Assembly: GCA_964569045.1 (NCBI GenBank)
Contig: CAZMSR010000001.1
Span: 66,593-130,592 of the forward strand
DNA length: 64,000 nt
Reading direction: 5' to 3'
From: an uncultured Gammaproteobacteria bacterium
GTDB taxonomy: Bacteria; Patescibacteriota; Patescibacteriia; Patescibacteriales; BS150m-G62
Part shown: positions 8,512 through 59,054 of the stretch, one piece after another
How the letters are laid out: each line of letters starts with the position of its first letter
How positions within the stretch are numbered: the stretch's first letter is position 1
Translations under genes and position numbers: made by a program
The notes under the pieces: generated by a model
Told to the model about the DNA's origin: nothing
Seen by the model: the letters and a program-made list of their open reading frames with translations, nothing else
Databases searched by the model: none

Positions 8512-10779
8512 ATGTTTAAGTTAGAAAGATTAATTAAAATAGGGTTTTATTTGGCTTTATGCCTACCTTTTGCATTTACTAGTCGAACTATGTATCCTTG
8601 GCATTTTGGCAAGACTGTTTTATTTCAAATATTGGTTGAGATTTTATTAATTTTAGGCTTAATAGATTTATTGCTTAGAAAAAGCAAGTTTTTTAAAAAA
8701 AAGTTAGTTTTAAATAATGTGGATATTAAAGTTCAGTTATTTAAGCTTTGTTGGTTTGATATATTAGTTTTATTATTTATTGGTATGCAGCTTGTGTCTG
8801 TTTTGTTAGGAGTAAACCCTGAAAGAAGTTTTTGGGGAACAGAGCAAAGGGTTCAAGGTCTGTTTACATGGACTCACTTTGTTTTATTCTATTATTTACT
8901 AAGAATATACATACGCACAAAAAAAGAATGGCTAAATTTTGGCTTTGCGTTTGTTTTAATCGCTGGTTTATCAAGTGTTGTAGCAATATTTGGGCATAAT
9001 TTTAGTTTTTTAAGAGGAATTGTGCTTGAGACAAGCAGAGTTTCGGGTTTACTGGGTAACCCGATTTTTTTAGCCGGGTATTTGATTATCCCGTTATTTA
9101 TTTGTTTAGCTTTAATTATAAAAACAAATAAAATTAAACAGAAAATTTTAATATTAAATTTTATTTTAATATTAGTAGCAATTATAATGACTCAGACTAG
9201 AGGCGCATATGTTGGGGTAATTGTTGGGTTTATTGCTATGTTTGTTCTTTATGTAAAGTATGGACTTAGTGGGTTTATAAAGCGCAATATTAGTATTGTA
9301 GTTACTGTTATATTATTACTATTTAGCGCAATTTATGTCTTTAATATTAAATCAAATTATCTATTAGAAAACTATTCAAAAATATCTCATGCTATAGATA
9401 TCAATCCTAGTTCTACCACTGCAAGTACTCGTTTACTTTCTTGGCAAGTTGCACTAGAAGGGTGGCGTGAAAAACCTTTTTTTGGCTGGGGTCTGGAAAA
9501 TTTTCAAGATTTATTTGATAATAATTATAAAGCAGATTTTCTTGATTATGGTTTTGGAGAAACTGTGTGGGATAAGCCGCATAATAATTTGGTTGAAGTG
9601 CTTTCTGAGAGTGGGGTAATAGGATTAATTCTGTATTTAACTATTATAATTTATGGTTTAAAAATTCTTTTAAATTATATTATTCAAATTGAAAATGACA
9701 AAAGTAAAATTACGTATATTGCAGTATTTGCTGCGCTTGTATCTTTTGAGGTTCAGAACTTTTTTTCTTTTTTTACTTCTGATTCACTTCTTGTTTGGAT
9801 TGTGATATTAGCCTTTATTGGGCAGATTTCTAAAAAGAAAAGCAAATATAATTTAAATAAGTTACTTGAGTTTAATGGTTTAAAAAACATATATTTCGGT
9901 GGTGCTGTATTAATAATTATTGCTTGTATGTATTTTATTAATACAAACATTAGTATATTTAAAACATCGGTAGTAATGGCAGACGCTCGTGATTGGGCTG
10001 AGGTTGGTTCGGTTTATCAATGGAAGAAACATGTTGAGTTATCATTAGAAAATGGAGGTATTTATGATTGGGAGCGAGCTGTGCTTGTTATAAGGGATTT
10101 GAGTTTTTTATCAAATAATGGGATTTTAAGTACTGAAATCTTAAAAGATATTCATAAAGATCTTGAAAATATTTTGGTTCAAGAAATCAAAAAAAATCCT
10201 CAGTCATATATGCTTAGATTTTGGTTATCTCAATTTTATGTATTAATGGGAGAATATGTAGATATTAAGTTTATAGATAAATCTAATCAATTATTAAAAG
10301 AGGCTGGAGGTATAAGTATTGAAAGACAGCAAGTGCCTTTGCACTTAAGTAAGAATTATCTAATAACTGGAGAAAAAGAAAAAAGTATTAGCATTTTAAG
10401 AGATTTAGTACTAAAAAATAAAGGTAGACCGGAATCTCATTGGTTTCATGGCATATCTTTAATAAATAATAATCAAATACAAGAAGGAGTGGATGAACTA
10501 GAAAAAGGCATAGAATTTGGTATGGATAGTAAACAGAATGCATTATATTTAATAGATAATTATGCTAAGCTTGAGCGTTTTGAGTCTATTGTTAAGATTT
10601 ATATTGAGTTAATAAAAAAAGAACCTGACAATGATCAGTTTTATGCTAGTTTAGCTGCTACTTATGCTGCTTTAAATGATTTTGATAACATGAGAAAAAA
10701 TTTAGAAAAAGCAGTAGAACTTAACCCTGCTTTAAAAGAAGAGGCAGAAATTTTTATGCAAAATAATTTAATAAATTAG
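8512..10779 (+). CDS. Wzy_C / O-antigen-ligase-family polytopic membrane protein fused to a C-terminal TPR array
   Basis: Many TM helices. MTQTRGAYVG loop and PHNNLVEVLSESGVIGL (H-N-x7-E-x-G-x2-G-L box shared with 13994 and 32322). The C-terminal 250 aa are TPR-like (YASLAATYAALNDFDNMRKNLEKAVELNP). Confidence 0.75.
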   Translation: MFKLERLIKIGFYLALCLPFAFTSRTMYPWHFGKTVLFQILVEILLILGLIDLLLRKSKFFKKKLVLNNVDIKVQLFKLCWFDILVLLFIGMQLVSVLLGVNPERSFWGTEQRVQGLFTWTHFVLFYYLLRIYIRTKKEWLNFGFAFVLIAGLSSVVAIFGHNFSFLRGIVLETSRVSGLLGNPIFLAGYLIIPLFICLALIIKTNKIKQKILILNFILILVAIIMTQTRGAYVGVIVGFIAMFVLYVKYGLSGFIKRNISIVVTVILLLFSAIYVFNIKSNYLLENYSKISHAIDINPSSTTASTRLLSWQVALEGWREKPFFGWGLENFQDLFDNNYKADFLDYGFGETVWDKPHNNLVEVLSESGVIGLILYLTIIIYGLKILLNYIIQIENDKSKITYIAVFAALVSFEVQNFFSFFTSDSLLVWIVILAFIGQISKKKSKYNLNKLLEFNGLKNIYFGGAVLIIIACMYFINTNISIFKTSVVMADARDWAEVGSVYQWKKHVELSLENGGIYDWERAVLVIRDLSFLSNNGILSTEILKDIHKDLENILVQEIKKNPQSYMLRFWLSQFYVLMGEYVDIKFIDKSNQLLKEAGGISIERQQVPLHLSKNYLITGEKEKSISILRDLVLKNKGRPESHWFHGISLINNNQIQEGVDELEKGIEFGMDSKQNALYLIDNYAKLERFESIVKIYIELIKKEPDNDQFYASLAATYAALNDFDNMRKNLEKAVELNPALKEEAEIFMQNNLIN

Positions 10780-16280: not shown

Positions 16281-16331
16281 ATGTTCACTCATCATTTAGC
16301 ACTACGGTAGTATAGAATGATGAGTGGATAT
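16281..16331 (+). repeat. CACTCACCAT-terminus repeat family (A), miniature copy A3
   Basis: atgtTCACTCATCATTtagcactacggtagtatagAATGATGAGTGGAtat. The arms pair with a single T:G mismatch. Flanked by gttattgt / gttattat. Lies between convergent genes. Confidence 0.7.
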
Positions 16332-16335
16332 GTTA

Positions 16336-17526
16336 TTATTTATAAATATTATTTGTTTTTTTTATCATTGAGTTTATATTAAACGCATTTTCAACAGTTG
16401 TTTTAAGGTTTATGCCGTATTTTTTTCTTTTTTCTGCGTTATAAATAAGCTCACTAATTGATTTGGCTAATGCTTGAGAATTACTTGGCTCAACTAATAG
16501 CCCATTGTAGTTATTGCTCAAAATATCCGGTACTCCTCCAACATTAGTAGCTACTACAGCTCTTTCTGCTAGGCCGGCTTCTAATATTGAGTATGGTAAA
16601 CCTTCTTTTACTGAAGACGAAACATAAATATCAAAAGCTTTTAGGTATTTACCGGCATTGTTTATTGCTCCGGCTAAATAAATATCATCAGATAAATTTT
16701 CAGAAGTTATAAGTTTTTCTAATTTGTTTCGAGTTAAGCCTTTACCAATAATTATAGCTTTAATTTTTGTTTCATTGCCTATTTGTACTTGAAGAGCGGT
16801 TTTTGATATTTTAAAGGCTTTTATAAAGTTTTCATAGTCTTTTGTAGGGTATAAGTTTCCAATTAACCCTATTAATAGTGTGTTGCTTTCTAGATTAATA
16901 TTCTTGAGCGGTTTAATAGACCTTAGCTCTAGAAGAGCATTTTTTTTGTTTAAGAAATTGATTTTTTTGTTATTTATGCCATTTGATATTAATTTAAGTT
17001 TATTTTTTGGAATTCTTAAAATGTTTTGTGCAATATCTAAATCCTTTTTATTAATGCAAATTATAGTGTCCTTAAATTTTGCAAAAATTGATTCAGCTAA
17101 TTTATAGAATTTGATTTTTATTTTATTTAAAGGTTCTAAAAAAACCCAACCATGCACAGTGTATATAACATTAAATTGCATTTTATATATCCAAGATTTT
17201 GTAATAAAGCAAGCTAAACTACCAATGATTGAAATTTTTGAAGAATTTAAATGCACTATGCTGGGTTTAACAATTTTAATAATTTGAACAAGTTTAAAAA
17301 TCGTTATTATGTCCTTTATTGGGGATATGGAACGTTTCAATGAATTAATACAATAATACGAGATGTCGTGTTCTTTTAATTTTTTGGCAAATTCATTTTC
17401 TGTAGTCTCGCAACCGGCAATAACTCCAATGCGATATTCATCAGATAAATTACTAGCTAGATCATAAATGTATTTTTGGGCACCACCAAATTCAGATTGA
17501 GTCACAATATATAGTATTGTTTTCAT
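16336..17526 (-). CDS. Glycosyltransferase, GT4 family
   Basis: N-terminus SEFGGAQKY. C-terminus SVKEGLPYSILEAGLAERAVVATNVGGVPD (GT4 E-x7-E region). Confidence 0.85.
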   Translation of the reverse strand: MKTILYIVTQSEFGGAQKYIYDLASNLSDEYRIGVIAGCETTENEFAKKLKEHDISYYCINSLKRSISPIKDIITIFKLVQIIKIVKPSIVHLNSSKISIIGSLACFITKSWIYKMQFNVIYTVHGWVFLEPLNKIKIKFYKLAESIFAKFKDTIICINKKDLDIAQNILRIPKNKLKLISNGINNKKINFLNKKNALLELRSIKPLKNINLESNTLLIGLIGNLYPTKDYENFIKAFKISKTALQVQIGNETKIKAIIIGKGLTRNKLEKLITSENLSDDIYLAGAINNAGKYLKAFDIYVSSSVKEGLPYSILEAGLAERAVVATNVGGVPDILSNNYNGLLVEPSNSQALAKSISELIYNAEKRKKYGINLKTTVENAFNINSMIKKTNNIYK

Positions 17527-17586: not shown

Positions 17587-17784
17587 AGCATCCACTCACC
17601 ATTTTGTGTTAGGGTGGTGTAAATTTTTACTAATTATATAGTTGTAATGCAGTGATTTTTAATAAGAATCAAACGCACAAATTATTTTTTTATACAACTA
17701 TTTAAAATAACTAAGAGACACTGCGTGTTTAGCTAGGGTTAGTTAAGATTTATACTACTGTGGTGTTAAATGGTGAGTAGATAC
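17587..17784 (-). repeat. Family-A repeat, full copy A1 (198 bp), inverted partner of A2
   Basis: The reverse complement matches 18811-18964 plus 19130-19173 with two substitutions, by hand alignment. It carries the uninterrupted site caactatataattagtaaaaattt. Confidence 0.9.
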
Positions 17785-17798
17785 TCTACTTAACACCT

Positions 17799-18731
17799 CT
17801 ACTTAATGCCCATTTTCTTTTTATATAACGACAACCATTTAATTAAATCAATAGCAGGGTCCCAGGATAGTAACTTGTGAGCCTTTGAATTATTAGCAAG
17901 ATTTATTCTCGGCTCAATTCTTGGTTCAACATACGCAACCTCGCCGCCAATAGCTCGTGCAATTTCGTTTATACTATAATTTTTACCACTACCAATATTA
18001 ATAACTTCGCCAGAGCTTATACCATTGTTTAAGGCAGCCTTAATATTTGCTTGAGAAACATCATCGGCGCTCACAAAATCTCTGCGTTGTTCGCCATCTC
18101 CAGTTACTGTTAGAGCTTCACCGCTCAATCTCTGTCTAGTAAAAATACCTAATACCAAACTATAACCTCCTTTAAGCGACATTCTGTCCCCAAAAACATT
18201 AAAATAACGTAAACACACTGTTCTTAATCTATAAATATCGCTATATAATTTGCAATACATCTCCCCTGCTAGTTTTTGCACAGCATAAGGACTTAGTGGA
18301 TTTATTTTTGCTTCTTCGTTAACCGGGAAGCTCTCAGGATTTCCATAAATAGCCGCAGTTGAGCTAAACACAAACTTTTTAACATTAGCCAATCTTGACG
18401 CTTCTAATACATTTAAAGTTCCTTTTAGATTAATTTCATTATACAAAAGTGGATCTTCTATAGAGCCTTGCACAGCTACTAATGCCCCTAAATGAAAAAC
18501 ATAATCAACCCCACCAAACAACGACTTTATTTTATTAAAATACCTTATATCAGCTTTAACAAATTTTGCACCTGGATTTATATTTTCTTTTTTACCTGTA
18601 AAAAGATTATCAACTACAGTAACTTTAAAACCCTGCTCAATTAAAGCATCTACTAAATGAGAGCCTATAAAACCAGCCCCTCCTATAACTAAGCATTTCA
18701 TATATTTAAAATAATTTTTAATATTTAACAC
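17799..18731 (-). CDS. NAD-dependent sugar-nucleotide epimerase/dehydratase (GalE/WbpP-like extended SDR)
   Basis: VIGGAGFIGSHLVDAL (Rossmann fold) and SPYAVQKLAGE (YxxxK). 310 aa. Confidence 0.8.
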   Translation of the reverse strand: MLNIKNYFKYMKCLVIGGAGFIGSHLVDALIEQGFKVTVVDNLFTGKKENINPGAKFVKADIRYFNKIKSLFGGVDYVFHLGALVAVQGSIEDPLLYNEINLKGTLNVLEASRLANVKKFVFSSTAAIYGNPESFPVNEEAKINPLSPYAVQKLAGEMYCKLYSDIYRLRTVCLRYFNVFGDRMSLKGGYSLVLGIFTRQRLSGEALTVTGDGEQRRDFVSADDVSQANIKAALNNGISSGEVINIGSGKNYSINEIARAIGGEVAYVEPRIEPRINLANNSKAHKLLSWDPAIDLIKWLSLYKKKMGIK

Positions 18732-18810
18732 TAATATTTTATAATATCATACACTTCTATTTTACAGAAGTGTTGCACTTACTTATTGAATTCGGTCTAG
18801 GTTAGAGCAA

Positions 18811-19173
18811 GTATCTACTCACCATTTAACACCACAGTAGTATAAATCTTAACTAACCCTAGCTAAACACGCAGTGTCTCTTAGTTATTTTAAATAGTTG
18901 TATAAAAAAATAATTTGTGCGTTTGATTCTTATTAAAAATCACTGCATTACAACTATATAATTAGGGACTGTCGCCAAACTCGCCTCACCCATAAATTGT
19001 TAATTTTGGCTAAATTTTTTTCAAATTTTTTTGGCTTACCTTAGGGTAGGCCTCAAAAATTATTCAAAAAATTTATCTTAAAATTTCCAAATTTATGAAT
19101 TAAAGCGAGTTTGGCGACAGTCCCAATTAGTAAAAATTTACACCACCATAGCACAAAATGGTGAGTGGATGCT
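18811..19173 (+). repeat. Family-A repeat, full copy A2, interrupted by the 160-bp TIR element
   Basis: Runs from gtatCTACTCACCATTTaacaccacagtagtataaat to aaatttacaccaccatagcacAAAATGGTGAGTGGatgct. 198 bp of A sequence plus the 160-bp insert plus a 5-bp duplication gives 363 bp. Confidence 0.9.
18965..19124 (+). mobile_element. 160-bp MITE-like TIR element, copy B1 (nested in A2), TSD AATTA
   Basis: GGGACTGTCGCCAAACTCGC ... GCGAGTTTGGCGACAGTCCC are 20-bp perfect TIRs. AATTA lies at 18960-18964 and 19125-19129. The empty site is present in A1. No ORF. The body is an imperfect palindrome. Confidence 0.9.
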
Positions 19174-19219: not shown

Positions 19220-20515
19220 ATGTTTAAAAGATTGCAAATATTAATTTTATTTATATATTTATTTGCTGCTAATACTACTAATGCAGCGATTATTTCTGAT
19301 CCAACGCCATCTTCTTCTGTTGGTGAATATGTTGGGTCTTTGTCACTAAAAGCTACAAAGGTATCTGGATTTTCTTATGGTTTAGAGTTAGAACCTGGTC
19401 AAAAGGATGTTGAGTTACTTAAGTTTAATTTAGAATTAAGAGGGTCAGAGGGTGCTAAGCTAACATGGCTTGGTTTGCGTCAAATTGGGTTTGAAAATAA
19501 ATTTACCAATTTAAGAGCGTATTATGGGAATTCTAAGCAGGGTAGAACGATAAATAATGATGATTTTCTTGGTGAAGTTATTGATTTTTATAGTTTAGGG
19601 CAGAATTTTGAAAAAAATACTCGTAATAGAATAAGAATAGTGGGTGATGTGTTAAGTACAGCTCCTCAAGGTCCGGCAACACTTGCTTTTGCCGGTGCTG
19701 ACTTTATTGGTTCTGATACTAATTGGGTTAGATCAATAGCTGAGATTACAAATGCGATTGAATCGAGTATTATTACAGCTGATGATACAAGATTTATTAG
19801 ACCCGTTGATCCCGGTGATGAGATTGAGGATGAATTTATTGACCCAATTGACCCTGTTTTGCCTCCAATTGACCCTGTTTTGCCTCCAATTGACCCTGTT
19901 TTGCCACCTTTAGAAGATGATGCATGCGATTCTGATTATCCAACTACAGCGGTTAGTGTAAAAGATATTGGATTGTATAATGAGCTAAAAGGACGGATTG
20001 TTCTAAAGGTTGAGGAGAACGGAGAGGCATTTTATATTCATCCAACAAAACAATATATGTATTATTTATGTCGCCCACGTCATGCTTTTAAGATTATGCG
20101 TGAGCAAGGAATAGGAATTTCAACTTTAAATTTAGAGAAAATGCCTTATGGTCTTAGTGATTTAAGTGGTAATGACAAAGATGGTGATGGCTTGCCTGAT
20201 ATTTTTGAAGATGCAATAAAAACTGATAAAAATTTAGCTAATACTGATGGAGAGGATTATTCGGACCGAGTTGATATTTTGAATGGTAGTAATCCACGCA
20301 AATCAGGAAGTTTAAATAAGAATATTTTAGGATCAATTATGCATAATGGAAAAATTTTTTTACAAGTTGAGGATAATGGCGAAGCTTGGTATGTTTATCC
20401 TGTTGATTCTATTAGGTATTATTTAGGTCGCCCTAGGCATGCTTTTACTATTATGAGAAACATGGGGCTTGGAATAAATAATAAAGATTTTAATAAAATA
20501 TATTTTGATAACTAA
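19220..20515 (+). CDS. Secreted protein with Pro-rich tandem linker, calcium-binding TSP3-like motif and two GEAWYV modules
   Basis: Signal peptide MFKRLQILILFIYLFAANTTNA. (PIDPVLP)x3 linker. NDKDGDGLPDIFED. Modules GRIVLKVEENGEAFYIHPTKQYMYYLCRPRHAFKIMREQGIG and GKIFLQVEDNGEAWYVYPVDSIRYYLGRPRHAFTIMRNMGLG. Confidence 0.6.
   Translation: MFKRLQILILFIYLFAANTTNAAIISDPTPSSSVGEYVGSLSLKATKVSGFSYGLELEPGQKDVELLKFNLELRGSEGAKLTWLGLRQIGFENKFTNLRAYYGNSKQGRTINNDDFLGEVIDFYSLGQNFEKNTRNRIRIVGDVLSTAPQGPATLAFAGADFIGSDTNWVRSIAEITNAIESSIITADDTRFIRPVDPGDEIEDEFIDPIDPVLPPIDPVLPPIDPVLPPLEDDACDSDYPTTAVSVKDIGLYNELKGRIVLKVEENGEAFYIHPTKQYMYYLCRPRHAFKIMREQGIGISTLNLEKMPYGLSDLSGNDKDGDGLPDIFEDAIKTDKNLANTDGEDYSDRVDILNGSNPRKSGSLNKNILGSIMHNGKIFLQVEDNGEAWYVYPVDSIRYYLGRPRHAFTIMRNMGLGINNKDFNKIYFDN
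19847..19909 (+). repeat. 21-bp tandem repeat x3 (attgaccctgttttgcctcca) inside the CDS
   Basis: Units at 19847-19867 and 19868-19888 are identical. The 19889-19909 unit has a variant end. A partial unit precedes at 19838-19846. The repeat encodes IDPVLPP. Confidence 0.9.
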
Positions 20516-26393: not shown

Positions 26394-28631
26394 TTATACA
26401 TCCGGAATTATGAAGATAAAAGATGATCCTTTGCCAAGTTCGCTTTCTACAGAAATTTGACCTCCATGAAGTTCGATTAGGCGTTTAGTGATTGCTAGAC
26501 CGAGTCCTGTTCCACCGGCTTTTCGTGTAGCGGAAGAATCAGTTTGTGTGAATTTGTCAAAAACTATTCCGACTTGATCAGCCGGAATGCCACAGCCTGA
26601 ATCTTTAACTCGAAACTCCGTATGTTCATGAATACGTCTGACAGAAACTTCCACTTGTCCCTTATCGGTAAATTTGATAGCGTTTCCGATTAGGTTAATC
26701 AGGACTTGTCGTAAGCGAATTTCATCGGCAATAACTTCTCCACCTTCACCAGAATGAATTAGGGCGATGCCTTTTTCTTCGGCTTTAACATTCATATCTG
26801 CAACTACTCCGGCAACAATACTATTTACCGAAACTGATTGTTTATCAAGATCCATTTTACCGGACTCAATTTTGGAAAGGTCGAGTAGATCATCGATAAG
26901 CATTTTGAGATGCTTGCCCTGTCTATGCATCTTTGTGCCAAGGCTGGAAAGCTGTTTCATTACGCTTAAGCAAGAGACCCGTACAGGATCTTTGGGGTCT
27001 TCGTTTAAAATGGCTGTCAGCTTACGAATTGAAGGTAAAGTCTTTTCACCTTTTATAAGCTTTAGATTTCCCAAAGCTATTATAAAAGGTAGATTGCCTA
27101 ATACCACTGTTAGTGGAGTTCGAAGTTCATGACTTATTACGTTCAGGAACTCCGATTTAGCAATATTTGCCTGTTCAGCTTCTTCTTTGGCAGTGAGCAT
27201 CAGGGCTTCTGCTTTTTTTCTCTCCGTAATGTCAACGATACACCCCACGAAAATTTTTTCTCCACCAACTTTGGCAAAATTCACAGCAAGCCACATAGGG
27301 AAAATTGTAGCATCTTTTCTCCGGCCTTTTACTTCTCGGCCGATCCCGATAATTTTTCTTTTCCCTGTATGATGGAAATTCGCAATATAACCATCATGTT
27401 CAGAGTAAAATGGATCAGGCATAAGTATTTTGATATTCTTGCCAATAACCTCATCTGCTTGGTAGTTAAAGATTTTCTCAGCTGCAGGATTAAAGGTCTT
27501 AATGATACCGTCTTTGGTAATCGTAATAATCCCATTTACAGCTGTATTAACTATGGCTGCAGAACGAGCTTCGCTATCCTTTAGTTCTTCTGTGCGTTCT
27601 TTTACTTTTGCTTCGATTATTGCATGTCTTTCAGCAGCGGTTTTGAAACGAAGCATGATTAGAAATGTAAAAATTAATTCAATCATTAGTATTAGCCAAC
27701 TTCTTATCGTATTGTGGTGTTCCTTGAGATAGGTAGGTGTTGGAAATAACTGAAGTTCCCAAACACGTCCGGCAACCTCTAACTGATGTGTATGAAAAAT
27801 TCCGGAAGTTTCAGGAATATCTTGACGTTCTGATGGGTAAAGCAATTGTGGTTTTATTGGATCACTAACGTCATAAAGATGAATTTTTATTTCAGCATCT
27901 CCGATCGAACGCTCTATCATATTTCCGACTCGAAATACCCCGAGAACAAAGCCAACTAAATGTTCTCGGCGTTCGCTAATTGTTTTTGGCTCACCATGAT
28001 AAACCGGTAAAAAGACCAGAAAACCAGCTTGCTTGGCAGTTTCTTGAACCAGAGTAATTCTGGAGGTTGCAACTGGTTTTCCAGAATCACGGGATTTAAT
28101 TAGTGCATCAAGACGCGTTTTGTTTGATGCAAGATCAAAGCCAAGTGCTTTTGTGTTTCCTGCTAATGGCTCAACAAAATAAACCGGAAAATATTCTTCC
28201 CGATTATTCGCTCTTAGCATTTGTCCATTTCGTTTTTCTCGGATTTGAAAATTGGTAAGCCCATCGGTACGAGCTTCCAATTCATACTGATCTCTTTTAG
28301 AAACGGTAATTCGTGGAATCCACTCCAAGGCCTGAATTGTTGAATGACGGGTAATTGTCCCTGTAACAAAGGTTTTAAACTCTGCACGAGTAACTTTTTT
28401 CGAAGAACGGAACAAACCGCGAATACCTTCAAGGACTTCCAGATTAATCGCCTTATTTTCTTGATTTAACATTGCAGCACGATCAATTGCCAATTGCCGA
28501 AATTCAGCCAAAATACGCTTATGCTCCAAGTTGTAAGTAGTGAAAGATGCTGATATCGAAAAAACGATTCCGATTGTAGTAGTTAGAATAATGGCTAGTG
28601 AAAACCAGACAGGCTTTATGTTTTTGTTCAC
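26394..28631 (-). CDS. Sensor histidine kinase: TM - CHASE-like periplasmic domain - TM - PAS - HisKA - HATPase_c
   Basis: IQALEWIPRITVSKRDQYELEAR is CHASE-like. PAS: ITITKDGIIKTFNPAAEKIFNYQADEVIGKNI. H-box FLNVISHELRTPL. NLIGNAIKFT, DSGCGIP, GGTGLGLAITKRLIELHGG. Confidence 0.85.
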   Translation of the reverse strand: MNKNIKPVWFSLAIILTTTIGIVFSISASFTTYNLEHKRILAEFRQLAIDRAAMLNQENKAINLEVLEGIRGLFRSSKKVTRAEFKTFVTGTITRHSTIQALEWIPRITVSKRDQYELEARTDGLTNFQIREKRNGQMLRANNREEYFPVYFVEPLAGNTKALGFDLASNKTRLDALIKSRDSGKPVATSRITLVQETAKQAGFLVFLPVYHGEPKTISERREHLVGFVLGVFRVGNMIERSIGDAEIKIHLYDVSDPIKPQLLYPSERQDIPETSGIFHTHQLEVAGRVWELQLFPTPTYLKEHHNTIRSWLILMIELIFTFLIMLRFKTAAERHAIIEAKVKERTEELKDSEARSAAIVNTAVNGIITITKDGIIKTFNPAAEKIFNYQADEVIGKNIKILMPDPFYSEHDGYIANFHHTGKRKIIGIGREVKGRRKDATIFPMWLAVNFAKVGGEKIFVGCIVDITERKKAEALMLTAKEEAEQANIAKSEFLNVISHELRTPLTVVLGNLPFIIALGNLKLIKGEKTLPSIRKLTAILNEDPKDPVRVSCLSVMKQLSSLGTKMHRQGKHLKMLIDDLLDLSKIESGKMDLDKQSVSVNSIVAGVVADMNVKAEEKGIALIHSGEGGEVIADEIRLRQVLINLIGNAIKFTDKGQVEVSVRRIHEHTEFRVKDSGCGIPADQVGIVFDKFTQTDSSATRKAGGTGLGLAITKRLIELHGGQISVESELGKGSSFIFIIPDV

Positions 28632-28682
28632 TTGTTCACTCCTCTTACCGGTTGATTAGTCTAAAACCACGTCTTCCATGAT

Positions 28683-28842
28683 GGGACTGTCGCCAAACTC
28701 ACTTTAATTCATAAATTTGGAAATTTTAAGATAAATTTTTTGAATAATTTTTGAGGCATACCCTAAGGTAAGCCAAAAAAATTTGAAAAAAATTTAGCCA
28801 AAATTAACAATTTATGGGTGAAGCGAGTTTGGCGACAGTCCC
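28683..28842 (-). mobile_element. 160-bp MITE-like TIR element, copy B2 (inverted orientation), TSD ATGAT
   Basis: Same 20-bp termini as B1. ATGAT lies at 28678-28682 and 28843-28847. It sits between the kinase start (28631) and the radical-SAM gene end (29013). Confidence 0.9.
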
Positions 28843-29012
28843 ATGATTGGCCAATGGTTTTTAGACTTGGCGATAATTTTGGTTGTGTCGATTTGTTCGA
28901 TCTAGATGATACTTTTGAAATCAGGATAATCAGTATACTTGACCGAGAATGTAAGTATAAAAAAATTAAGATGATATTTTTATAAAAAAATTCTAACAAT
29001 TTTAATGGGCAG

Positions 29013-35290: not shown

Positions 35291-35455
35291 GGGTATCCAC
35301 TCACCATTCTTAATAGAATATCGCACGAGGATCAATGTTTATCGGTGTGCCCAGTCTAGATCCCGGAACTTCGCTTCGCTACGTCCGGGATGACACAGGT
35401 TGTTTAATATTAGCGTATAAAAGGTAGTAAATTGTTTAGTATGGTGAGTGGTTAC
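35291..35455 (+). repeat. Family-A repeat, copy A4 (same termini, unrelated interior)
   Basis: Runs from gggtaTCCACTCACCATtc to gtATGGTGAGTGGttac. Flanked by ATCCAA at 35285-35290 and 35456-35461. The interior has a GC hairpin, atcccgga / tccgggat. Confidence 0.75.
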
Positions 35456-54038: not shown

Positions 54039-54082
54039 ATAAGGTGAGTTTCGTTAACCTTAAATATTTGGGAGTGCCTAAA

Positions 54083-54241
54083 GGGATGTCGCCAAACTCG
54101 CTTCACCCATAAATTGTTAATTTTGGCTAAATTTTTTTCAAATTTTTTTGGCTTACCTTAGGGTAGGCCTCAAAAATTATTCAAAAAATTTATCTTAAAA
54201 TTTCCAAATTTATGAATTAAAGCGAGTTTGGCGACAGTCCC
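54083..54241 (+). mobile_element. 160-bp MITE-like TIR element, copy B3, TSD CTAAA
   Basis: The left TIR has a 1-nt deletion (GGGA-TGTCGCC). CTAAA lies at 54078-54082 and 54242-54246. It sits between convergent genes. Confidence 0.9.
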
Positions 54242-54277
54242 CTAAAGTAGAGTTTGTGAAATTTTAAATTGCTCCGG

Positions 54278-56849: not shown

Positions 56850-56902
56850 TAGATATTAGTGAAAATTTACACCATTATAGTGCTAAATGGTGGGTGGGTA
56901 TA
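56850..56902 (+). repeat. Family-A repeat, right-hand part only (A5a)
   Basis: tagatattagtgaaaatttacaccattatagtgctAAATGGTGGGTGGGtat aligns with the right third of A2. It starts 12 nt after the upstream stop codon. Confidence 0.75.
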
Positions 56903-56950: not shown

Positions 56951-58855
56951 ATGAAGTGGCTAATTTTTCAAAGGAAAATTAAAAAAAACTGGGAGTTATT
57001 AGTTGTAATTTTAATTGCAATTATTTTTTTTGTATCCACTTCTTTTTTTGTATGGAAAATGAATAATGATGGTTTGGTTAAGTGGTTGTCTCCTGACGAA
57101 AACGCAAATTATTTTTTTACACAATTATTTTATAAAACCGGATCTTTAGTGACATACGACTCTTTAAATATAAATGTGCAAGATATTGTACACCCTAGGA
57201 GTTTTCGTTCTGACTTAGGTGAATTAAAACCAGTAAGCTTTTTAGGTATTATATTAATTTATGGTTTTTTTGCTAAAATTTATGGCACTCAAATAATTCC
57301 ATATTTAACGCCAATTATTGGAGCTATTGGAGTTATTTTTTATTATTTATTTATTAAAAAAATTTTTACTAAAAAAATAGCGTTTATTTCAAGTTTGTTT
57401 TTAGCATTTTTCCCTGTATATGTGTATTATAGTGCGCGTAGTATGTTTCATAATATTCTTTTTAGTGTGTTATTTATTATTGGGTCGTATTTTTTATCTC
57501 AGTTTTATGAAAAAAAATATGAGTTCTTAGAAAAAAATAGTATTTTAAAAAGTTTCCTATCATATCGATTTCATGATATTAATCAGCTTGCAATATGCGC
57601 ATTAGCTGGAGTTTTTTTTGGTTTAGCATTGTTTGTCCGTACTTCAGAGTTAATATGGATTGGCCCGCTTTTGATATGTATTTGGTTTATGAATTTTAGG
57701 ACTATTAGATTAACTCATTTGGTTGTGTTTATTTTGTTCTTATTGCTTGGTTATTCACCTGCTTTTTATTTTAACCAAATATTGTATGGTTCAATTTGGC
57801 TTGGAGGGTATCATGAAATGAATAATTCAATAGTGGATATGGTCAGTGCTAGTGAAAAAATAGCAGGTGCTAATTTTTTTAGTCGCGAAAAATTAACTAA
57901 TGCATTAGAAGTATTAAAGAAAAATATATTTTATTTTGGATTTAAGTCATTTGAGTCTTGGCAGCAATTTATAAATTATTTTATGATTATGTTTTTTTGG
58001 ATATTTTGGCCGGCTGTTTTTGGGTTTTCTAGATTAGTAGAAACATGGAAAGAACAACCAAATAAGATTAAAAAATATATTGTTTCTTATTTTATTTTAC
58101 TACCTATTTTGATGTTTTATTACGGAAGTTGGAAGTTTAATGATAATCCTGATTTAAGTAGTGTAACAATAGGTAATTCTTATACAAGATATTGGTTACC
58201 AATATATATGGGTGCCTTTCCTTTTGTGGCTATCTTTTATATTAAAATATCAGAAACTTTTGCAAAAAGAAAAGCAGAATTTAGTTCAAATTTGTTTAAT
58301 ATTAAAATTCAAAATAACAGCAATGGTTTTATTGACTCCTTGCATATAATAAGCGCTAACAATGAGAGATTTAAAAAGACAAAAAAGTTTTTTAGGGAAA
58401 ATATTTTTTCTTTGTTTATGAGAAAAGAATTAATAGTTAATGCAATAATTTCTTTTTTAGTTTTAATAAGCTTATTTGTTAGTGTGCAGTATTTATTATT
58501 TGGATCAGAGGAGGGGTTAATAGAAACTTATCATAAGCATAAAATAGCTAAGCAGGATATGTTAAAAATTTTCAAGATAACTCCAAAAAATTCTGTAATT
58601 ATTACAAGGTATCATGATAAACTTCTTTTTCCTGAACGTCGGGTTATTGTTGGTTTATTTGATGATAATAATATGATAAGAAACTATGCTAAAATAGCCC
58701 ATACTACGCCTCTTTATTATTACAATTTTACATTACCGCAAAAGGACGTTGAATATTTAAATAATCGACGTCTTGTTGAATTTAATTTAAGTCTTAAAGA
58801 AATAGCAACAATTAATGATTTTAGCCTGTATAAAGTTGAGGTAATAAAAAAATAA
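56951..58855 (+). CDS. GT-C membrane glycosyltransferase (GT39 / ArnT / PMT-like)
   Basis: The first loop after TM1 carries WLSPDENANYFF (DE motif). At least 11 TM helices. C-terminal soluble domain. Confidence 0.6.
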   Translation: MKWLIFQRKIKKNWELLVVILIAIIFFVSTSFFVWKMNNDGLVKWLSPDENANYFFTQLFYKTGSLVTYDSLNINVQDIVHPRSFRSDLGELKPVSFLGIILIYGFFAKIYGTQIIPYLTPIIGAIGVIFYYLFIKKIFTKKIAFISSLFLAFFPVYVYYSARSMFHNILFSVLFIIGSYFLSQFYEKKYEFLEKNSILKSFLSYRFHDINQLAICALAGVFFGLALFVRTSELIWIGPLLICIWFMNFRTIRLTHLVVFILFLLLGYSPAFYFNQILYGSIWLGGYHEMNNSIVDMVSASEKIAGANFFSREKLTNALEVLKKNIFYFGFKSFESWQQFINYFMIMFFWIFWPAVFGFSRLVETWKEQPNKIKKYIVSYFILLPILMFYYGSWKFNDNPDLSSVTIGNSYTRYWLPIYMGAFPFVAIFYIKISETFAKRKAEFSSNLFNIKIQNNSNGFIDSLHIISANNERFKKTKKFFRENIFSLFMRKELIVNAIISFLVLISLFVSVQYLLFGSEEGLIETYHKHKIAKQDMLKIFKITPKNSVIITRYHDKLLFPERRVIVGLFDDNNMIRNYAKIAHTTPLYYYNFTLPQKDVEYLNNRRLVEFNLSLKEIATINDFSLYKVEVIKK

Positions 58856-58895: not shown

Positions 58896-59054
58896 ATGCC
58901 CACTTACTATTTAGCACTGTGGTAGTATAAATTTTAACTAATTTTAGTTAAATACGAAGTGTCTTTTAATTATTTTAAATGGTTGTGTATAAAAATAATT
59001 TGTAAATTTTCTTCTTATCAAAAACTACTGCATTATAACTAGATAATTAGTGAA
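58896..59054 (+). repeat. Family-A repeat, left-hand two-thirds only (A5b)
   Basis: Runs from atgcCCACTTACTATTTagcactgtggtagtataaatttt to cattataactagataattagtgaa. Collinear with A2 18811-18969, with many substitutions. Confidence 0.8.

Follow-up and report, generated by a model that had tools for sequence, protein, structure and literature searches.

A 64,000-nucleotide stretch of contig CAZMSR010000001.1 (assembly GCA_964569045.1, positions 66,593 to 130,592; referred to here as the window) contains an inverted pair of host-repeat arms, one of which is continuous while the other is split by an insert of 160 bp. What is this insert, and what moves it? The insert is best explained as one copy of a family of MITEs (miniature inverted-repeat transposable elements), which is defined by its 18-nt ends and would be moved in trans by a transposase encoded elsewhere. 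We assign this reading a probability of roughly 0.85. The partner is more likely an undescribed or divergent group of DDE transposases than Tn3. The insert (copy A) and the repeat in which it is nested have the following layout, where TSD stands for target-site duplication.

18965-19124, forward strand: MITE copy A (160 bp), inside the right-hand arm of the host repeat (199 nt).
18960-18964: left TSD of copy A, AATTA, with the boundary set by the empty paralogous site.
19125-19129: right TSD of copy A, AATTA.
18810-19173, forward strand: right arm of the host repeat, split by copy A into 18810-18964 and 19130-19173.
17587-17785, reverse strand: left arm of the host repeat, uninterrupted, downstream of the epimerase gene at 17799-18701.
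17631-17635, reverse strand: empty site in the continuous left arm, where AATTA occurs once.

Read on the minus strand, the left arm is continuous (caactatatAATTAgtaaaaattt) and has no insert. Once copy A and one AATTA are taken out of the right arm, the two arms can be aligned with 197 of 199 positions identical, and the two differences are confined to a small hairpin's loop, past the insertion point. This alignment of the filled and empty sites fixes the boundaries of copy A as well as a duplication of exactly 5 bp. A first-pass annotation of the window had described a 160-bp element with terminal inverted repeats (TIRs), inserted with a 5-bp duplication into one copy of a 198-bp repeat. The insertion and the filled/empty pair are borne out by the alignment, while the repeat itself measures 199 nt. 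The TIRs, given there as 20 bp and perfect, are indeed 100% complementary (GGGACTGTCGCCAAACTCGC, at 18965-18984 and 19105-19124). A third copy of the host repeat (58902-59054, 80% identical) is also uninterrupted at the ATAATTAG site.

Copy A has three close relatives on the same replicon.

28683-28842, reverse strand: MITE copy B, 160 bp, in inverse orientation to copy A; TSD ATGAT at 28678-28682 and 28843-28847.
54083-54241, forward strand: MITE copy C, 159 bp; TSD CTAAA at 54078-54082 and 54242-54246.
L048 68-227 (the same as L071 9782-9941), 7.3 kb upstream of the window: MITE copy D; TSD ATATT.

Copies B and C, together with their TSDs, had been reported in the first-pass annotation and are confirmed in the sequence. 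Its proposal to look for further copies is answered by copy D, which has a 5-bp TSD of its own. One TIR arm of copy B carries a single substitution, and a 1-nt deletion in the left TIR of copy C (GGGA-TGTC) reduces that copy to 159 bp. The four copies are found within about 82 kb and are all intergenic. They differ from one another at 2-6 positions (96-99% identity), but each is flanked by a different 5-bp TSD (AATTA, ATGAT, CTAAA and ATATT). With up to 3 mismatches allowed, the terminal 20-mer occurs 6 times in the window, as compared to 0 times in 100 shuffles, and no degenerate ends were found in the window beyond those of copies A to C.

The features of a MITE are therefore present, namely TIRs, a TSD of constant length and variable sequence, a small size without a transposase gene, and both filled and empty sites. 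The only open reading frame (ORF) of at least 20 codons that touches copy A is a 33-codon GTG frame. It overlaps the right end of the element, continues into the flank and lacks conservation as a unit, so that the earlier statement that the insert has no ORF holds in substance, with this frame as the qualification.

Each copy of the MITE folds into one long hairpin. The whole 160-bp element forms a single hairpin both as RNA (-72.4 kcal/mol, z = -12.3) and as DNA (-45.3 kcal/mol, z = -11.1), in agreement with the imperfect palindrome noticed at first pass; such folding is a frequent property of MITEs. A hairpin of this stability, found only between genes, could also belong to a palindromic structural or regulatory repeat (REP-like, a terminator or an RNA gene) that was spread by recombination, in which case the 5-bp repeats would be incidental. 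Moreover, the copy A allele of another assembly (L003 119-278, JGI 3300008625) has two changes that keep a pair of the central hairpin, ggCttacc..ggtagGcc becoming ggTttacc..ggtagAcc. However, this is the one compensatory pair among five sequences, and it is not above the shuffle control (92/500); it therefore provides no evidence of selection on the hairpin itself. No Rfam family reaches its gathering score for the element or the window. The sub-threshold Rfam matches at 18963-19126 on the minus strand are to plant microRNA precursors (MIR7533, 44 bits against a cut-off of 230 bits), and these scores most likely reflect only the shape of a long AT-rich hairpin. On the other hand, exact and differing 5-bp repeats abut identical ends in all four copies here and in at least five elements elsewhere (see below); for just three such repeats, the probability of chance occurrence is about 1e-9. 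The filled/empty alignment is that of a clean insertion, and the copies are found in both orientations relative to the neighboring genes. A repeat spread by recombination is thus extremely improbable.

For the MITE, the following mechanism is proposed. A transposase supplied from elsewhere would bind both TIRs, with the outer 18 nt (GGGACTGTCGCCAAACTC) as the essential part. The two ends would then be paired and joined to the target by way of cuts staggered by 5 bp, and repair of the gaps would produce the 5-bp direct duplication. The targets are intergenic and AT-rich. From this anatomy, we infer a DDE-type transposon, of the cut-and-paste or the copy-and-paste kind, that has been stripped of its gene.

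The outer 18 nt are also found in other genomes. An exact scan with this 18-mer, covering one genome per species for 185,579 species, identified 24 loci, as compared to about 17 expected by chance. Nine of the loci are inside genes of high-GC genomes and one is in a cyanobacterial contig of moderate GC content, and these ten look like chance matches. The other 14 clearly do not arise by chance. They are distributed over six genomes, with nine in one metagenome-assembled genome (MAG) of the Bradymonadales and five in five MAGs of the candidate phyla radiation (CPR), and they are located in intergenic DNA with an element-like context.

The Bradymonadales MAG (REDG01) contains elements of 104-181 bp that have the 18-mer as their right end and a variant, GGGAGTGTCGCTAAAGGC, as their left end. 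Clean 5-bp duplications flank three of them (GCAAT for L012, CTAAA for L005 and TTTGT for L024), whereas a fourth (L018) is flanked by a direct repeat of 7 bases instead of 5. A second motif of the left type is present 25 nt inside the right end of these elements (L005, L012, L013, L014, L018, L024 and L025). In a Kaiserbacteria MAG, there is a 98-bp element (L016 4785-4882) with both ends present and ACGAA duplicated. Three Saccharibacteria MAGs and one Falkowbacteria MAG have single, intergenic ends, two of which share subterminal sequence. The metagenome scan found another 160-bp element, flanked by CTGAG, in a contig of 40% GC (L047 851-1010).

An alignment of all these elements shows that the terminal 18-24 nt are common to them, with the consensus GGGA[C/G]TGTCGC[C/T]AAA, while their interiors are unrelated. 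What defines the family is thus the conserved end together with a duplication of 5 bp, and not the interior. A shared end with unrelated interiors is as expected if a conserved transposase recognizes that end.

Exact-end scans for an element encoding such a transposase were carried out with the 18-mer on genome contigs, a 20-mer on metagenome contigs and a 16-mer on viral contigs. They returned only short elements, solitary ends and chance matches in genes of high-GC genomes. A Pfam search of the ORFs beside the ends in the Bradymonadales loci found no transposase. In the 17 kb to the left of the window, there are the fourth copy and a cluster resembling a type IV secretion system, but no transposase; to the right of the window, two look-ups turned up no exact protein on record. 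Searches with tblastn, using two IS6 and five ISAba11-like transposases against the window and all fetched loci, produced nothing (for IS6, none below E = 0.1), and a blastn search with the end against the plasmids of PLSDB was also empty. A profile search with 10 ISAba11-like transposases gave more than 5,000 relatives. The two AT-rich metagenomic relatives that were fetched have canonical TAGGACTTAC ends, and not the end of the MITE family.

Two ORFs near the ends were considered and rejected. A 72-aa ORF behind the end in a Saccharibacteria MAG (L010), which looks like an IS5/IS1182 N-terminus, was dropped as it has no Pfam or NCBIfam match, no homologue among 5.8 billion proteins and no tblastn match in plasmids. 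A 233-aa ORF with a helix-turn-helix motif in L016 has motifs that, judged by eye, look like those of a homing endonuclease and not of a transposase.

The end itself offers a second route to the partner, by comparison with the ends of known families. It belongs to the GGnnnTG class and fits the IS6/IS26 consensus best, although the duplication, constant at 5 bp, is at odds with that family. In the IS6/IS26 consensus, GGTTCTGTTGCAAA, G1, G2 and G7 are nearly invariant, G10 is highly conserved, and positions 3-4 are the most variable (PMC6807381). The MITE end, GGGACTGTCGCCAA, has all four of these guanines and matches the 14-bp consensus at 10 of 14 positions, with two of the four mismatches at the variable positions 3-4. 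Compared with a real IS6-family end (L082/L057, GGCACTGTTGCAAAAA), it shows 12/16 identity, ungapped from the first base, for which the chance probability is about 4e-5 per comparison. IS6/IS26 elements and their MITEs (MITEBth2 and MITEHarch3; PMC6807381) have the same kind of short (14-20 bp) GGnnnTG end with G1, G2, G7 and G10. ISfinder lists MITEs with IS6 ends, and the archaeal ISSto2 is recorded with a 5-bp duplication. In bacteria, however, the IS6/IS26 duplications are 8 bp wherever they are recorded, and these elements form cointegrates, while all eight clear duplications of the MITE family are 5 bp and a ninth is ambiguous. In addition, the GGnnnTG motif is found in IS1 and other families as well. 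IS6/IS26 transposases have H-HTH and DDE domains and a size of about 230-250 aa, and the tblastn searches with two of them were negative for the window and the fetched loci. A relative of IS6/IS26, or a member of a wider group with GGnnnTG ends that makes duplications of 5 instead of 8 bp, is therefore put forward tentatively, as a possible partner and not as a probable one. It is also conceivable, though doubtful, that the end marks an undescribed DDE clade with IS6-like GGnnnTG ends and a catalytic geometry for duplications of 5 and not 8 bp, which would be active in small CPR genomes and in the predatory Bradymonadales. Horizontal transfer of the autonomous element would then explain identical ends in phyla so far apart.

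The duplication agrees with that of the ISAba11 group of the IS701 family, for which a 5-bp repeat has been called 'characteristic' (PMC7885321). The ends were determined for 15 ISAba11-like elements whose hosts are bacteria and one probable archaeon (the set includes Acinetobacter, Nostoc, Meiothermus, Chondrinema, Planktothrix, Polaromonas, Fulvitalea, Moraxella, Piscirickettsia and two metagenome contigs). Ten of the 15 have clean 5-bp duplications, for example TATTT, ATTTA, GCGGA, CATTA, AATTA, TACTA and AGATA. This group and the MITE family have in common a constant 5-bp duplication, AT-rich targets and short ends that are strongly conserved across phyla and distant hosts. The ISAba11-group ends read (T)AGGACTTACGCA or ACTGAnnTTACGCA, and share GGACT..CGC with the MITE end, at 8 of 13 positions with an offset of 1 nt. 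This match is weak, however (p about 0.006 before allowing for offsets). Moreover, the nearly invariant TTACGCA core of the group is missing from the MITE end, which has TGTCGCC instead (4/7), and the core is kept even between elements that are only 25% identical in protein. The transposases of the group are DDE_5/DDE_Tnp_1 proteins of about 330-350 aa, and the tblastn searches with five of them were negative for the window and the fetched loci. A partner from this group is unlikely.

The first-pass annotation had instead suggested that this may be a Tn3-derived miniature element (TIME), based on the 5-bp duplication and a GGG..CTG.CGC terminus. A Tn3-family transposase would then mobilize it through Tn3-type inverted repeats and make the 5-bp duplications. 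The Tn3 terminal repeat is GGGGTCTGACGC, and the outer end of the MITE, GGG-ACTGTCGC, can be matched to it at 9 of 12 positions with one gap. The resemblance is thus real, but weaker than the ungapped 12/16 match to the IS6 end. A 5-bp duplication (5-6 bp in TIMEs) in AT-rich targets also agrees with this origin (PMC4133298), and TIMEs are likewise non-autonomous, with a hairpin-forming body and an end that starts with a run of G. On the other hand, the repeats of the Tn3 family and of TIMEs are about 38 bp long and conserved along their length (PMC4133298), while the MITE end is conserved over 18-20 nt only, whether ends or lineages are compared. Positions 19-38 show no conservation, and there is no 38-bp repeat, no inner TAAG box and no shared inner box at positions 30-40. 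The MITE end begins with GGGA and not GGGG. TIMEs are about 262 bp in size and mostly occur as one copy, for which transposition immunity is given as the reason (PMC4133298); the window element is 160 bp, with four copies in 82 kb, a difference in a trait that is typical of TIMEs rather than strictly defining. No Tn3-like gene is found near any copy, and no gene for a Tn3-family transposase, a protein of about 1000 aa, in the roughly 100 kb of this genome that was examined. The short conservation, the GGGA start and the copy number all argue against the proposed Tn3 derivation, which is very unlikely.

No known family fits both the sequence of the end and the length of the duplication. Among the named candidates, the IS6-like or GGnnnTG group comes first, followed by a divergent ISAba11/IS701-like group, with Tn3 far below; what is left goes to something else. 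Several observations weigh against a MITE family moved in trans. The long element with the same termini and a transposase, which the first-pass annotation had proposed to look for, did not turn up in the collection of 185,579 genomes, in the metagenomes, in the viral contigs of IMG/VR, in the PLSDB plasmids or in the 100 kb or so of this genome that were examined. The end resembles those of IS6/IS26, Tn3 and ISAba11 to differing degrees, and resemblance does not fix the partner family. The empty site for copy A is a paralogue and not an allele. Finally, no presence/absence polymorphism is seen at the four sites in any assembly examined, and movement was not observed.

The last of these points comes from a comparison of independent assemblies. 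The same population was recognized by exact protein matches in several JGI, ENA and Logan assemblies. Sites A, B, C and D are filled in every other assembly that covers them, for example site B in L003 and L004, and site C, with the same 1-nt deletion, in L083-L086. Many contigs of the other assemblies end inside the element, as is expected of a multi-copy repeat. In two related species (71-72% identity in release factor 2 (RF-2), with the same gene order), there is no copy of the MITE in 21 kb each, which indicates that the amplification is specific to the lineage of the window organism. The amplification is recent on the scale of species divergence and is fixed in the sampled population. The description of the element as recently active at first pass has indirect support in the 96-99% identity and the intact TSDs, but all four sites are filled in every assembly. 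Recent activity of the MITE family is plausible.

The host of these elements is a CPR bacterium (Patescibacteria), since the nearest named homologues of the RF-2 gene just upstream of the window (60-72% identity) are all from Patescibacteria, Parcubacteria or Falkowbacteria. The window has a G+C content of about 30% and is gene-dense, with genes for glycosyltransferases, O-antigen-ligase-like proteins with TPR repeats, DUF4012 proteins, a CHASE sensor kinase and similar functions. No tRNA was found in the window. Copy A is located 95 nt upstream of the gene at 19220, and copy B adjoins a CHASE histidine-kinase gene (26394-28631, reverse strand), 52 nt upstream of it. Copy C is flanked by convergent genes whose stop codons are 45 and 37 nt away, and copy D is between a phosphoribosyltransferase-like gene and the RF-2 gene.

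The region of copy D has further features. In one of the related species, a different palindrome of about 180 bp, with perfect inverted arms of 34 nt (GCTCACATAACATATAGTGGGTATATTAATTTTA), is located upstream of the RF-2 gene (L081 9390-9570). This region corresponds to that of copy D in the window organism, and small repeats thus seem to land there recurrently. The cluster resembling a type IV secretion system (L071 3849-8378, with PrgI-like, TraC-like and VirB4/TraG-like ATPase genes) is 2-6 kb upstream of copy D and is conserved in related species (L078 and L081). There is strain variation upstream of the window, with a 529-aa ORF (Ser/Thr/Asn-rich, no Pfam match) at L048 5131-6720 and three short ORFs in its place at L050 5126-6367. 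The contigs of some assemblies end inside the Wzy_C gene that corresponds to 8512-10779 of the window.

The host repeat is itself of some interest. Its two arms form a 199-nt inverted pair around a GalE-like epimerase gene (17799-18701, minus strand). In two other assemblies, contigs of 1262 and 1084 bp (L001 and L002) consist of the epimerase gene alone and end in the two arms; this pattern may be the assembly graph of a segment that is present in both orientations. The repeat belongs to a dispersed intergenic family, with the copy at 58902-59054 and pieces at 56855-56897, 57100-57138, 16300-16329 and 35292-35309. Each of its ends has a hairpin motif with the consensus CACCAC..A..ACAAAATGGTGAGTGGAT; as a pair, these motifs make up imperfect inverted repeats of 48 nt. 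The host repeat may be another miniature element, or a promoter or terminator module. A promoter-like site at 18933-18962 (TTAAAA, 18 nt, TATAAT; 10/12) is directed at the gene at 19220. The duplicated AATTA overlaps with the -10 box of this site, and copy A follows immediately downstream of the box, so that any transcript would start in the 160-nt hairpin or read through it. The uninterrupted arm has the same promoter-like site, directed at a glycosyltransferase gene (16336-17526). The gene at 19220 is a 431-aa ORF (19220-20515, no Pfam match). It contains three tandem 21-nt units at 19844-19908 (CCAATTGACCCTGTTTTGCCTCC register), which would encode a repeated heptapeptide.

In kind, the element is an ordinary bacterial MITE, but the family to which it belongs appears to be undescribed. 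Its end sequence was not found in the searchable full-text literature or in PLSDB. Searching full texts for MITEs in combination with the candidate phyla radiation gave nothing relevant, the lone return being a paper on diversity-generating retroelements. The window MITE is similar to Correia, ERIC and MITEAba12 in being small and non-coding, with TIRs and a TSD, in having nearly identical intergenic copies and a long hairpin over the whole element, and in its presumed mobilization in trans. It differs from them in its own end sequence and in its CPR host. Mildly unusual features are the presence of the exact 18-nt end in both Patescibacteria and Bradymonadales, and the combination of an IS6-like end with a 5-bp duplication.

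The mobile elements of CPR bacteria (Patescibacteria) have barely been described, and the window MITE provides a clean, recently amplified family with a density near one copy per 20 kb in a reduced genome. Genes for glycosylation of the cell surface, for a sensor kinase and for RF-2 are located 37-95 nt from the copies, where a hairpin of -72 kcal/mol or a split promoter could alter expression. A practical consequence is that short-read assemblies of this population break at the element. The end, which is exact across phyla while the interiors differ, is a handle for finding the responsible transposase. Should this turn out to be an IS6-like transposase that makes 5-bp duplications, it would be relevant to how the length of the duplication is set in that group; a new transposase clade common to CPR bacteria and Bradymonadales would be of greater interest.

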